Below, piece after piece: positions 12,781 through 17,063 of a stretch of 24,000 nt of DNA. The translations under genes were made by a program, and so were the position numbers. Under the pieces are notes generated by a model that was not told the origin of the DNA, searched no databases, and worked only from the letters and a program-made list of their open reading frames with translations. The stretch lies in assembly GCA_022834735.1 (NCBI GenBank), contig BQKD01000001.1, positions 139,659 to 163,658 on the forward strand, in the 5' to 3' direction. Positions within the stretch are counted from its first letter, which is position 1, and each line of letters starts with the position of its first letter. Source of the stretch: Erysipelotrichaceae bacterium OPF54. Its GTDB lineage: Bacteria; Bacillota_I; Bacilli_A; Erysipelotrichales; Erysipelotrichaceae.

Positions 12781-13482
12781 ATGAACACAGTGATGAGACA
12801 GGAAAAAAAATATCTGATCGACCGCGTGAAGATGGTAGAGCTCAAATCGTATTTTTCACATTTTCTTACGCTCGACCCCCACACAAAAAACGGAACGTAC
12901 CGCGTACGCAGCCTGTATTTCGATTCGATCGACGACCGGGACTATCATGAAAAGGAGGAAGGGATCGAGCTGCGGCGCAAGATCCGCCTGCGCATTTATG
13001 ATCCTGACAGCCCGTATGCGATGCTCGAAATGAAGAAGAAGGAAGGCAGCAGCCAGCAGAAGCGTTCGATGGCCATGTCGCGTCAGGATGCCGAAGAGCT
13101 GATCGGCGGACGGTATGATGTGCTGCTCCAGTACGATACGCCTTTTGCCAAAGAGTGCTATGTCGTCATGAACATGCATCTTTACCGTCCCCGCTCGATC
13201 GTGGAGTACGAGCGGATTGCGTATTGCGGGCCGGCCAATAATATCCGCATCACTTTCGATCATGATATCCGTTCGACCGAAACCGACTTCGACCTGTTTT
13301 CGAAAAATCTGAATCTGTATCCGGTTTTCGGACAGGACCGGGTCGTTCTCGAGGTCAAATACAACGGGTATTTGTTCAGTCCGATCAAGATGGCGCTGCA
13401 GAGCTGCGATCACAGCGAAGTGTCGGTCGGAAAGTACAGCCTGAGCCGCTCTGCCGGCCTGCACTATATTTATCAACTATAG
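12781..13482 (+). CDS. VTC-domain protein (polyphosphate-polymerase-like triphosphate tunnel fold)
   Basis: The 233-aa protein starts MRQEKKYLI, an E-x-K type tunnel motif. It also has YRVRSLYFDS, ELRRKIRLRIY, LEMKKK, VVLEVKYNG and KYS. It is soluble, with no TM segment. An AAAGGAGGGG RBS is present. Confidence 0.85.
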   Translation: MNTVMRQEKKYLIDRVKMVELKSYFSHFLTLDPHTKNGTYRVRSLYFDSIDDRDYHEKEEGIELRRKIRLRIYDPDSPYAMLEMKKKEGSSQQKRSMAMSRQDAEELIGGRYDVLLQYDTPFAKECYVVMNMHLYRPRSIVEYERIAYCGPANNIRITFDHDIRSTETDFDLFSKNLNLYPVFGQDRVVLEVKYNGYLFSPIKMALQSCDHSEVSVGKYSLSRSAGLHYIYQL

Positions 13483-13539
13483 GCAAGAAGACTCCCACCT
13501 CTATAGGTGAAAGATGAATTGCTAAGCTCAGTTTTTCTA

Positions 13540-13568
13540 TGGATAAAGATATAAAAATGCAGTATAAT
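13540..13568 (+). promoter_or_regulatory. Candidate promoter for tnpB inside the left end
   Basis: TGGATA (13540-13545) is followed after 17 nt by TATAAT (13563-13568). A GAGGAGG RBS lies at 13584-13590. Confidence 0.35.
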
Positions 13569-13597
13569 GAAATCAGGGAAAGTGAGGAGGAAACGAT

Positions 13598-14716
13598 ATG
13601 CCGAACAAAGCCTGCAAATTCAGACTCTATCCAACGCCAGCACAGAAGATCCTCCTTGCAAAGACATTCGGCTGTGTCCGCCTTGTCTACAACCATTGGC
13701 TCGATCGAAAGATCAGCCAATACAAAGAAGATCAGACAACCTTGAGTTACACTTTCTGTGCCAAAGAGCTGGCTGTACTGAAGAAAACAGAAGAGTCCGC
13801 CTTCCTGAAGGAAGTCGACAGCATTTCTCTGCAGCAGTCGCTCCGCCATCTGGATCAGGCCTTCCAGAACTTCTTCAAACGGCCCGGAACAGGATTTCCA
13901 CGATTCAAATCCAAAAGAAACAGAAAGAACAGCTATTCGACCGTCTGCGTCAATCAGAACATTCTCCTGTCCGACGGCTGTTTGAAACTGCCAAAGATCG
14001 GACAGGTCAAGGTGAAACAGCATCGGGAGATTCCTGAATCGTATGTTCTCAAGTCGGTGACTGTAAGCCAGAGCCCGAGCGGAAAGTATCATGCAAGCAT
14101 TTCGTTCGAGTACGAAAACCAAGTATCGGAAAGAAAGCCGCACACTTTCCTTGGACTCGACTTCTCGATGAACAGACTGTACAAAGACAGCGAAGGAAAC
14201 GAAGCAGAGTATCCTAAGTATCACAGGCAAGCGGAAAAGAAATTGAAACGGGAACAGCGCAAGCTGTCGCACATGCAGAAAGGCTCCAGAAACTGGGAGA
14301 AACAGCGGATCAAGGTCGCAAAGCTGCATGAAAAGGTTGCCAATCAAAGAAAGGATTTTCTGCATAAGCGATCAAGAGAGATTGTCAATGCGTATGACTG
14401 CGTCTGCATAGAAGACCTGGATATGAAAGCGATGGCAAGATCGCTGCATTTTGGCAAATCGGTTCATGACAACGGATGGGGCATGTTCACTGCTTTCCTG
14501 AAGTACAAACTGGAAGAAGAGGGAAAACAGCTGATCCGGATCGACAAATGGTTTCCTTCGAGCCAGACCTGCTCAGTATGCGGGTATAAGAATCCGGAAA
14601 TAAAAGATCTCGGCATGCGGGAATGGGACTGCCCTCGATGCAAAAGCCATCACGATCGGGATCTCAATGCGGCAATCAATATAAGAAAGGAAGGCATGCG
14701 GATCGTAATGGCATAG
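13598..14716 (+). CDS. tnpB: TnpB (IS200/IS605 OrfB) RNA-guided endonuclease-type protein
   Basis: MPNKACKFRLYPTPAQKILLAKTFGCVRLVYNHWL is a typical OrfB N-terminus. The RuvC-like acidic residues lie in LGLDFSM, CIEDLDMK and HDRDLNAAINI. A zinc ribbon is present (CSVCGYKN...CPRCKSHH). Confidence 0.92.
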   Translation: MPNKACKFRLYPTPAQKILLAKTFGCVRLVYNHWLDRKISQYKEDQTTLSYTFCAKELAVLKKTEESAFLKEVDSISLQQSLRHLDQAFQNFFKRPGTGFPRFKSKRNRKNSYSTVCVNQNILLSDGCLKLPKIGQVKVKQHREIPESYVLKSVTVSQSPSGKYHASISFEYENQVSERKPHTFLGLDFSMNRLYKDSEGNEAEYPKYHRQAEKKLKREQRKLSHMQKGSRNWEKQRIKVAKLHEKVANQRKDFLHKRSREIVNAYDCVCIEDLDMKAMARSLHFGKSVHDNGWGMFTAFLKYKLEEEGKQLIRIDKWFPSSQTCSVCGYKNPEIKDLGMREWDCPRCKSHHDRDLNAAINIRKEGMRIVMA

Positions 14717-14856
14717 CCTGTAAATAAAAAAGAACCGTGGGACACACGGGGATAGCTCGCTTATGCTTGATGAGATATCGTCATCGAACGAGAACCGACT
14801 GTTCGCTTTTTAAGCGAAAGGAAGCCCCCACCTCTATAGGTGGGGGAGGATGTCAC
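14660..14856 (+). ncRNA. Probable omega-RNA (reRNA) scaffold of TnpB; 5' end not determinable
   Basis: Position follows the known TnpB arrangement, overlapping the tnpB 3' end and the right end. Four consecutive hairpins are seen at 14735-14749, 14769-14785, 14802-14818 and 14825-14846. The guide would be the flanking sequence just 3' of the element end. Confidence 0.35.
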
Positions 14857-14874
14857 TACTAAAGGAGGTTTATA

Positions 14875-15552
14875 ATGAGAGACATTTTGGAAGGCATGCT
14901 TGCTGAATCCGGAACTTTGACCACCGAAGAGATCTTAATGCATATTTTCGCGGCTCTGGTATTAGGCATGTTTATTTATATATCGTATTATATCAGCCAC
15001 GCGGGAACGGCATATTCCCGCAAATTCAATATTTCGCTCGTCTGTCTGACAGTCCTGACCGCCACGGTCATGACCGTGATCGGCAACAATCTTTCGCTTT
15101 CGCTCGGTATGGTCGGCGCCTTGTCGATCGTCCGGTTCCGGACAGCGGTCAAAGATACGAGAGACACGATCTACATATTCTGGACGATCGTGGTCGGTAT
15201 CTGCTGCGGGGTCGCGGACTATCTGGTCGCGTGTGCCGGAAGTGCCGTGATCTTTGTCATCCTTTTGTTCCTCGGCCACGTGAAAAACGAAAACCGGATC
15301 CTGCTCATTGTCAAAGGGAGCAGGATGTACGAGGATCAGATCGAAAAGGAGATCTTCGATTATTTCAGCCGCAAGGCGCTGCTCCGCACCAAGAACACGA
15401 CGCCGACCACAGTGGAATATATTTACGAGCTGTCCAGGAAAATGCTGAATGAAAGCAGCCGGAGCGGCACATCGATCACCAGCGCTCTTTATGAGATCCC
15501 CGATACGCAGTATGTCGATATTGTCGCGCAGAGCGATGAGATCAGCGGATAG
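14875..15552 (+). CDS. DUF4956-family membrane protein
   Basis: An N-terminal TM bundle contains GALSIVRFRTAVKDTRDT, the hallmark I recall for DUF4956, and is followed by a soluble C-terminal domain. An AAAGGAGG RBS is present. Confidence 0.8.
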   Translation: MRDILEGMLAESGTLTTEEILMHIFAALVLGMFIYISYYISHAGTAYSRKFNISLVCLTVLTATVMTVIGNNLSLSLGMVGALSIVRFRTAVKDTRDTIYIFWTIVVGICCGVADYLVACAGSAVIFVILLFLGHVKNENRILLIVKGSRMYEDQIEKEIFDYFSRKALLRTKNTTPTTVEYIYELSRKMLNESSRSGTSITSALYEIPDTQYVDIVAQSDEISG

Positions 15553-15554
15553 AG

Positions 15555-17063
15555 ATGAAATACAAGATCATCAGCGCCGTATCGGTCGTTCTTCTGCTCG
15601 TCCTTCCGCTCGCTCTGCAAGCCCTGCGTTCGGACAGCGCGGTATCCAGGGCACGGGGACGATACATTCAGCATCTTGAAGCGCCAAAGGAACAAAGCGC
15701 TTCGAGCGCAACGGACCCTGTGCATTTTCAGACCCATCTGCCGGTCGTGGAAATCGATACGGACGATATACCGGTCCCGGGCAGCTGGATCCTGAACGCA
15801 CAGGGAGCACGGACCGGAACGGAAACGGTCAACGGACAGGAACAGATCGAAGCCCATATCCGCTGGATCGATCACGATACGTCTGTCAAAACATACAAGG
15901 ATGACGGGCTCGACACCCGCGCTCTGATCCGGATCCGGGGCAATTCCTCGCGCGCGTTTGACAAAAAAAGCTACCAGATCAAGCTGATCGATGAAAAGGG
16001 AAACGAAGAGAAAGCGCAGCTTTTCGGGATGGGCGCGCACGATAACTGGGCGCTGTACGGACCGTATCTGGATAAAACGCTCATCCGCAACTACCTGCTC
16101 ATGAACGTTTCGGCTTCGGTCATGGGATATGCGCCAGAAGTGCGCTTCTGCGAAGTTTTTCTCAACGGCCGGTATCAGGGACTGTATGTGCTCATGGAAA
16201 CGATCCGCAAAGGCGGTTCGCGTATCGATATAGAAACGTACGAGCCGGGGAAAGCGGAATTCGACTATATCCTGCGGATCGACCGCAATGATCCGGACAG
16301 CCGGGTCGTCAACTCGTTTTCAACCTACACGTTCCGGCAGGAAATGCTCGGAAGCAGCGCGGGCGTGCAGGTCATTTATCCGCCAGCCTCAAAGCTGGAC
16401 GAAAAAGGACTGAAATATATCGAAGACAATTTGAGCGCGTTCGAAAAGGCACTGTATTCCTCGGATTACCGGAGCGCTTCCAGGGGCTATCGCCGCTACA
16501 TCGATGTCGATTCGTTTGTCGACTATTATGTGCTCCAGGAATTTCTTGCGATCTCGGACGCCGGCACCCGGTCCACGTATTTATACCGCGATCGGTCCGG
16601 CAAGATAAAGATCGGTCCGGTCTGGGACTACAACAATGCCTGGAACAATTATTTCATGTCGTTTGACGAAGAGGGAAGCGAATTCATGCTGGTTGACCGG
16701 ATCTGGTACGACCGGCTGCTCAGCGACCCGTACTTCAATGAAAAAGTGATCGAACGCTACAGGGAACTTAGAAAAACGTTCCTTAGCGATGAAGCCCTGC
16801 TCAGCGAAATGGATGAGATCGTGGATTATCTGGGTAGTGCGGTCGGACGCAATGAAAGCGTCTGGGGCTATGCGTACGATCCGTCCCTGCTTGATGGCAA
16901 CCAGAAGCTTTTTCCGGATGAGCGCAATCCGGAAAACTATGAAAGCGCGCTCGAACAGATGAAAGAGTATATGCGCCGGCGCGGCGCGTGGATGGACCGG
17001 CATATCGATTCGCTGCGTCAGTATGCCCATTCATCGCGTACGGAGAAATACGAAACGAGGTAA
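15555..17063 (+). CDS. CotH-family (atypical kinase fold) protein with an N-terminal signal or anchor sequence
   Basis: The N-terminus is a signal or anchor sequence (MKYKIISAVSVVLLLVLPLALQAL). IRIRGNSSRAFDKKSYQIKL, YLDKTLIRNYL, YQGLYVLMETI and GPVWDYNNAWNN are typical CotH segments. The start lies 2 nt after the DUF4956 stop. Confidence 0.85.
   Translation: MKYKIISAVSVVLLLVLPLALQALRSDSAVSRARGRYIQHLEAPKEQSASSATDPVHFQTHLPVVEIDTDDIPVPGSWILNAQGARTGTETVNGQEQIEAHIRWIDHDTSVKTYKDDGLDTRALIRIRGNSSRAFDKKSYQIKLIDEKGNEEKAQLFGMGAHDNWALYGPYLDKTLIRNYLLMNVSASVMGYAPEVRFCEVFLNGRYQGLYVLMETIRKGGSRIDIETYEPGKAEFDYILRIDRNDPDSRVVNSFSTYTFRQEMLGSSAGVQVIYPPASKLDEKGLKYIEDNLSAFEKALYSSDYRSASRGYRRYIDVDSFVDYYVLQEFLAISDAGTRSTYLYRDRSGKIKIGPVWDYNNAWNNYFMSFDEEGSEFMLVDRIWYDRLLSDPYFNEKVIERYRELRKTFLSDEALLSEMDEIVDYLGSAVGRNESVWGYAYDPSLLDGNQKLFPDERNPENYESALEQMKEYMRRRGAWMDRHIDSLRQYAHSSRTEKYETR

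Follow-up and report, generated by a model that had tools for sequence, protein, structure and literature searches.

What separates a gene for a VTC-domain protein from a gene for a DUF4956 protein in Erysipelotrichaceae bacterium OPF54, and by what means could it have come there? The stretch of DNA that we analysed (hereafter the window) comprises 24,000 nucleotides of contig BQKD01000001.1, positions 139,659 to 163,658, and belongs to a genome of 3.2 Mb in two contigs. The initial annotation of this stretch had placed between the two genes, at 13484-14856, an autonomous-looking TnpB/omega-RNA element without tnpA. Our results lead to a somewhat different description: we consider it highly probable (roughly 93%) that positions 13474-14856 of the window are a 1383-bp non-autonomous insertion sequence of the IS200/IS605 family, of the tnpB-only, IS1341-like type, inserted 3' of a TTTAT motif.

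The extent of the element is best read from relatives that lack it. Metagenome contigs were scanned for the two flanks with 0-12 nt allowed between them, and an exact empty site was found in two of them, both times with gap 0 (...GCCTGCACTATATTTAT|TACTAAAGGAGGTTTATAATGAGAG..., or in a shorter form ...TATATTTAT|TACTAAAGGAGG...). Both contigs are collinear with the window across the two flanks at 92-97% identity and join them base to base. The empty site reads TTTAT|TACTAAAGG, shows no target-site duplication, and its junction is not slidable, because the bases flanking it differ. The copies of the element elsewhere in the same genome, about 25 with fragments included, tell the same story. When full-length copies were aligned together with their flanks, conservation ran from 15 nt left of the start first reported (TTTAT + CAACTATAGG) to ...GGAGGATGTCAC at 14856. 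Of the 26 left ends in the genome, all (26/26) have TTTAT directly 5' and nothing conserved beyond it, and at 25 right ends conservation halts exactly at the equivalent of 14856, with unrelated sequence beyond. Thus, gap-0 empty sites and copy alignments together set the element at 13474-14856: the right border first proposed was correct, while the true left border lies 10 nt further out. Since relatives keep the empty site, the exact ends, the target motif and the guide are all readable, and the comparison with uninterrupted VTC-DUF4956 loci that had been proposed at the outset indeed yielded the ends, TTTAT as the target-adjacent motif (TAM) and a guide start at 14857. A nucleotide search for VTC among 40 relatives returned only one homologue, from a same-genus genome; being 73% identical, with a VTC-DUF4956 gap of only 22 nt, it shows the adjacency of the two genes and is too divergent to fix the ends.

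The empty allele also tells what the insertion did to its neighbours. The VTC gene ends there in ...TAT ATT TAT TAC TAA, and the element entered between the last two codons, so that the first nine bases of its left end (LE), CAA CTA TAG, put Gln-Leu-stop in place of Tyr-stop and turned the C-terminus ...IYY-stop into ...IYQL-stop. The earlier view that the element lands after the VTC stop codon has to be corrected accordingly: the empty site (...TAT|TAC TAA) places it one codon ahead of the ancestral stop. A third CTATAGG at 13477-13483, overlapping the TAG at 13480-13482, had been thought to mark a cleavage or TAM-proximal site. Because LE supplies the new VTC stop, this heptamer is an ordinary part of the interior of the left end; most copies share it, and one subfamily has TTCTTGAG instead. 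The true motif is the TTTAT at 13469-13473. For annotation purposes, it is important to note that the present VTC C-terminus (QL-stop) is transposon-derived. On the other side, the ribosome-binding site (RBS) and ATG of the DUF4956 gene are host DNA right of the element: AAAGGAGG at 14861-14868, 5' of the start codon at 14875, was left untouched, and the insertion is co-oriented with the operon, both as described initially. The AAGGAGG of this RBS begins right after the original VTC stop TAA, and the two genes originally lay within a few bases of each other. Transcriptional read-through from the element into DUF4956 is plausible, because no terminator is predicted on the + strand within it. 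The right-end (RE) hairpin was considered as a terminator and rejected, having no T-run 3' of it on the + strand.

Both ends are built around subterminal hairpins, without terminal inverted repeats. The two hairpins share a direct, not inverted, 16-nt core, CCCACCTCTATAGGTG, at 13494-13509 and 14827-14842; for an exact 16-mer repeat in 1.4 kb we estimate a chance expectation of ~2e-4. In a repeat search the core extended to a 25-nt direct repeat (13485-13509 / 14818-14842, 84% identical, spacing 1333). In most copies the LE hairpin has a 9-bp stem ending GGTGGGAG; that of the window copy is weakened, with five base pairs (CACCT-CTAT-AGGTG) followed by two mismatches and two further pairs. Overall, the features from which the initial annotation had started were all recovered: the 372-aa open reading frame (ORF), the pair of 16-nt cores, the hairpins of 5 bp on the left and 9 bp on the right, and the structured 3' region.

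The ORF itself is a typical tnpB. Its product carries the Pfam domains PF12323, PF01385 and PF07282 (HTH_OrfB_IS605, OrfB_IS605 and Cas12f1-like_TNB), scores 438.6 bits against the cut-off of 425 for NF038281 (IS200/IS605 family element RNA-guided endonuclease TnpB) and 344 bits against the cut-off of 100 for NF040570, and matches ISDra2 TnpB (8bf8/8exa/8h1j) over residues 3-367 (E 1.9e-85, 290 bits). Counted along the printed alignment, D188, E272 and D355 fall opposite the catalytic residues D191, E278 and D361 of ISDra2; the zinc-ribbon cysteines, located by the same alignment, are C325, C328, C345 and C348. Both the RuvC triad and the zinc ribbon are therefore intact, as had been supposed, and a check for catalytic substitutions found the triad unchanged relative to ISDra2. 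By family membership, the TnpB of the window would be an RNA-guided nuclease.

Ten copies in the genome are full-length, at 91-93% identity, and are accompanied by many fragments; their right flanks all differ, so that the same ends recur in unrelated surroundings. An intact 372-aa tnpB ORF is kept in seven copies. Among the paralogues, the pairwise ratio of nonsynonymous to synonymous substitution rates (dN/dS) has a median of 0.16 at dS ~0.2, from which we conclude that purifying selection has long acted on TnpB. About six protein-less mini-elements of ~50 nt are also present, each 3' of TTTAT and composed of the left end, a single hairpin and the right-end tail, without the omega-RNA scaffold (genome C1 759616-759665, 789317-789366, 184723-184772, 667827-667876 and 2743281, the last duplicated at 2856912). 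They can be read as PATE-like derivatives, resembling those described for Geobacillus, or as products of a deletion between the direct 16-nt repeats at the two ends.

As a single sequence, the 140 nt that follow the tnpB stop and reach to the right end have a more stable fold than shuffled versions (z = -3.0). Within the same family, 16 further genomes contain homologous 3' tails, ending in GTCAC, GTCAA, TTCAA or TTCAC, and their TnpB proteins are 42-70% identical to that of the window. RNAalifold on 13 sequences recovered hairpin 1, the long-range helix with hairpin 2 and the terminal hairpin, with compensatory changes at 14 of the 26 pairs. A pseudoknot joins the loop of hairpin 1 to the end of the tail, and in lineages where the tail reads GUUC the loop reads GAAC, which keeps the pairing. 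Over 20 sequences, 98.9% of the cells of hairpin 1 plus pseudoknot are paired, and in 7/9 pairs both partners change; covariation scores 0.68, against 0.20 for shuffled alignments (0/500 reach the observed value) and <=0.12 for slid partners, the pseudoknot having been proposed after viewing the same sequences used to score it. The single-sequence fold and the covariation thus vindicate the four successive hairpins described at first sight. The 3' tail forms a conserved structured RNA with the fold expected of an omega-RNA scaffold, and would presumably be transcribed as such. An Rfam search of the element region gave sub-threshold matches only (HgcC, E 0.31; a CRISPR repeat model, E 0.1), compatible with a TnpB-type RNA and not used as evidence.

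According to the mechanism of the family, the guide would begin at the first host base, 14857, and extend for 16-20 nt, a length assumed from characterised TnpBs. Up to 14876 it runs through the old Tyr-stop codons of VTC and the RBS of DUF4956 into the ATG, of which it includes the first two bases. The guide had previously been put at roughly 14850-14870; its overlap with the DUF4956 5' region stands, while its start had been set too far to the left. This sequence lies directly 3' of TTTAT in the empty allele, is unique in the genome of the window and never occurs 3' of TTTAT there. More generally, a search with the 21 distinct guides of the genome found no match next to TTTAT there (0/21), which is what filled sites would lead one to expect. 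One could speculate, at rather long odds, that trimming of the omega-RNA, out of read-through transcripts of the operon, at 16-20 nt past 14856 would cut between the DUF4956 RBS and ATG and uncouple the downstream genes.

How, then, might such an element have moved? Only 124 nt separate its left end from tnpB, and there is no ORF for a Y1 or serine transposase within 13474-14856. By the known mechanism of the family, an element without tnpA is non-autonomous, and the label "autonomous-looking" is thus not appropriate. TnpB-element relatives in other genomes carry tnpA just 5' of tnpB. In a same-genus relative (L048, G001:C55, oriented ~1160-1440), whose TnpB is 66% identical, a decayed tnpA remnant lies between the left end and tnpB. 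This remnant shows that the TnpB family of the window derives from a tnpA-tnpB element. The genome of the window itself contains 12 Y1_Tnp matches, which belong to two tnpA-tnpB families, A and B. Family B is IS608-like, with the target TTAC, the right-end motif TCAA and a right end formed by a hairpin + AGGATGTCAA, and this right end has the same hairpin foot and AGGATGTCA tail as the window element. Its members encode a 134-aa TnpA and a 478-aa TnpB (C1 838558 region, L035), and one copy, at 138919-139272, lies ~400 bp left of the window start. In IS608, the bases 5' of a hairpin pair with the cleavage site. From family B to the family of the window, the four bases 5' of the hairpins covary with the cleavage motifs, from AAAG/TTAC to AAGA/TTAT on the left and from GAAT/TCAA to GAAG/TCAC on the right. 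Such covariation fits the IS608 pairing rule, and by this analogy the AAGA at 13488-13491 may pair with the left cleavage motif as an internal DNA guide.

The most probable course of events is the following. A Y1 (HUH) TnpA from elsewhere in the genome would recognise the two subterminal hairpins, cut the top strand at TTTAT| and TCAC|, excise the element as single-stranded DNA and paste it 3' of another TTTAT. TnpB would bind an omega-RNA whose guide part stems from transcription of the adjacent host DNA, from 14857 onward, and would cut alleles reading TTTAT + TACTAAAGGAGGTTTA..., i.e., the rejoined empty donor site, after which repair or recombination with the sister chromosome would restore the element. 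This scenario is drawn from Meers et al. (10.1101/2023.03.14.532601) and otherwise from the established mechanism of the family.

Several observations weigh against a copy that is still moved in this way. Compared with the decayed tnpA of the same-genus relative, the TnpA of family A is 45% identical and that of family B 28%; no tnpA-bearing element of the genome has the CCCACCT....AGGTGGG hairpin. The LE stem of the window copy differs from that of most copies by two G-to-A changes (GGTGAAAG, where those have GGTGGGAG). No paralogue comes closer to it than 93% identity, and the window copy may therefore no longer move. The hairpin and identity data, together with the tnpA already decayed in the same genus, lend some weight to the idea that the window copy is a stranded relic, which may still make TnpB and omega-RNA and no longer transposes, its LE hairpin being degraded and no cognate TnpA being left. 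We hold this possible, albeit somewhat less probable than its contrary. On the other side, the tnpB coding sequences of two copies with different flanks, at genome positions 366826 and 472123, are identical, and the family thus seems to have moved fairly recently. The GGTGAAAG variant is present in at least two other copies and has therefore propagated. The hairpin foot and tail in common with family B make cross-mobilisation conceivable.

Two further explanations seem to us very improbable. The co-orientation with the operon, the intact downstream RBS and a guide region spanning the DUF4956 RBS and start codon might bring to mind a domesticated TnpB, for instance an RNA-guided regulator of the TldR type that has become fixed in the VTC operon and works for the host. 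Yet the catalytic triad and both transposon ends are intact, some 25 copies are scattered among unrelated flanks, and close relatives have the exact empty site. Given the triad, the multi-copy distribution and the empty site, we ruled domestication out; the empty site, the absence of which the initial annotation had named as a sign of a domesticated gene, identifies the locus as an insertion. Equally far-fetched is an autonomous transposon with TnpB itself as the transposase: OrfB/TnpB has historically been labelled a "probable transposase", as in the Pfam description of PF01385, and this label has to be set against the lack of a Y1 or serine transposase in the element. Overall, we conclude that this non-autonomous tnpB-only insertion sequence is another member of an already known type. 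No tested feature departs from the family definition except the missing tnpA, and this lack defines a recognised non-autonomous tnpB-only subgroup, so that membership in IS200/IS605 stands.

The coordinates of the element and its surroundings are collected in Table 1. The sigma-70-like promoter candidate listed there is a consensus match only, and promoter-like sites in the LE region are no commoner than in shuffled sequences.

Table 1. Features of the tnpB-only element and of its neighbourhood (window coordinates)
Feature	Position	Strand	Basis or remark
VTC-domain protein gene	12781-13482	+	Upstream neighbour of the TnpB element
TAM / left cleavage motif TTTAT	13469..13473	+	Host DNA, within VTC codons ATT TAT
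Left end (LE), begins CAACTATAGG, up to tnpB start	13474..13597	+	Start of copy conservation and empty-site junction
AAGA, four bases 5' of LE hairpin foot	13488..13491	+	Putative internal DNA guide, by IS608 analogy
LE subterminal hairpin CTCCCACCT-CTAT-AGGTGAAAG	13492..13513	+	Sequence and copy alignment
Candidate promoter TGGATA-17-TATAAT, sigma-70-like, 5' of tnpB	13540..13568	+	10/12 consensus matches
RBS of tnpB, GAGGAGG	13584-13590	+	
tnpB, 372 aa	13598..14716	+	Pfam, NCBIfam and PDB matches
Unoccupied IS110 target ATATAAGAAAGGAAGG	14679..14694	+	Core AA at 14687-14688
Predicted omega-RNA scaffold, minimum extent	14735..14856	+	Fold and covariation
Hairpin 1	14735-14749	+	
Pseudoknot GACA (hairpin 1 loop) / UGUC	14741-14744 / 14851-14854	+	
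Long-range helix enclosing hairpin 2	14756-14762 / 14787-14792 (hairpin 2: 14768-14783)	+	
Hairpin 3	14802-14818	+	Only in the close subgroup
RE subterminal hairpin CCCCCACCT-CTAT-AGGTGGGGG, 9 bp	14825..14846	+	Also last omega-RNA stem
Hairpin 4	14825-14846	+	Same as RE hairpin
Right cleavage motif TCAC (transposon-encoded)	14853..14856	+	Last bases of the element, 10 nt past RE hairpin
Predicted guide TACTAAAGGAGGTTTATAAT	14857..14876	+	Position from family mechanism; host DNA
DUF4956 protein gene	14875-15552	+	Start codon at 14875
CotH kinase gene	15555-17063		Downstream of the DUF4956 gene

We would also like to comment on another mobile element that is closely associated with this family. 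A 1656-bp element of the IS110 family (protein 255 bits, NF033542) is present in the genome in ten essentially identical copies, e.g., L046:235-1890 = C1:2147634-2149289. All ten (10/10) lie within or abut copies of the TnpB element, and one further, internally deleted copy is found elsewhere. Seven are inserted at the same point, AATATAAGAA|AGGAAGG, with the AA core repeated at both junctions. Of all occurrences of ATATAAGAAAGGAAGG in the genome, only that of the window copy is vacant: the other TnpB-element copies with this sequence (7/7) carry IS110, and those with a GC core are without exception free of it. The host TnpB copies differ from one another <=45 nt from the junction and the IS110 copies are identical, so that the insertions look independent and recent. 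The entry point lies between the last tnpB codons and the omega-RNA scaffold, and an insertion there would split the nuclease gene from its guide. The 5' non-coding region of IS110 holds a 13-mer, TAAGAAAACTGTC, identical to its left insertion junction, and a bridge-RNA guide could look like this sequence; an Rfam search of the IS110-bearing composite gave no match. Integration of IS110 elements is known to be sequence-specific and frequently directed at repeats; it relies on a bridge RNA together with a dinucleotide core (Durrant et al. 2024, PMC11208160). Such evidence induces us to speculate, at about even odds, that the TnpB element family is a dedicated landing pad of a bridge-RNA type IS110, one guided element parasitising and disabling another, with the window copy as the last vacant target.

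The genome is heavily loaded with mobile elements in general. Another one, of 3319 bp (e.g., C1 1163489-1166807), contains two ORFs of 456 and 268 aa, has the inverted ends GTAGAGCGTCG.../...CGACGCGCTAC and is present in 33 copies of 99.9-100% identity, three of which interrupt TnpB-element copies with 7-bp overlaps. It looks IS21-like from its gene layout, and the 33 near-identical copies point to a very recent burst. Features of C1 at ~2.33-2.50 Mb and 2.74-2.89 Mb recur at a spacing of exactly 71,006 bp in three cases and of exactly 113,631 bp in two. Such repeats point to large duplications, tandem or segmental, or else to an artefact of the assembly, and may be the source of the 9% "contamination" figure.

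As for the significance of the locus, its practical value is modest. A compact TnpB of 372 aa has been read together with its TAM, a ~120-nt scaffold with a covariation-backed fold, the start of the guide and a natural empty site, and the locus is therefore ready for a cleavage assay. Thousands of TnpB orthologues are known, and a TnpB with a TTTAT TAM has already been characterised. The more interesting biology is the pattern of IS110 insertions in TnpB elements, most of which lies outside the window.

Finally, the element can be compared with three known systems. With IS608 of Helicobacter pylori, the paradigm of peel-and-paste transposition by a Y1 TnpA, it shares the subterminal hairpins, a mode of insertion that places the element 3' of a short motif and duplicates nothing, cleavage on the right 10 nt past the hairpin and four-base segments 5' of the hairpins that appear to covary with the cleavage motifs. 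These motifs, TTAC/TCAA in IS608, are TTAT/TCAC here, and unlike IS608 the window element has no tnpA. The closest solved structure is that of ISDra2 TnpB (8bf8, 8exa, 8h1j), which resembles the window protein in full-length homology, in the D-E-D triad and in the CxxC...CxxC ribbon, as well as in drawing its guide RNA from the 3' end of tnpB plus the right end and in having a 5-nt T-rich TAM, TTGAT in ISDra2 against TTTAT here. The two differ in size (372 aa in the window versus 408 aa), and ISDra2 carries its own tnpA.

The element most closely parallels ISGst2 of Geobacillus stearothermophilus, whose TnpB2 uses the TAM TTTAT and whose tnpA-less copies are presumably mobilised in trans and are accompanied by PATE-like mini-elements (Meers et al. 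2023, 10.1101/2023.03.14.532601). The host lineages differ, and the likeness is one of described features; unlike the minis of ISGst2, those of the window family are only ~50 nt long and have no scaffold. In both cases, all the same, tnpB with an overlapping or 3' omega-RNA and without tnpA stands behind TTTAT in many copies per genome, presumably mobilised in trans, with a guide that matches the empty donor joint and with protein-less PATE-like mini-elements at its side.

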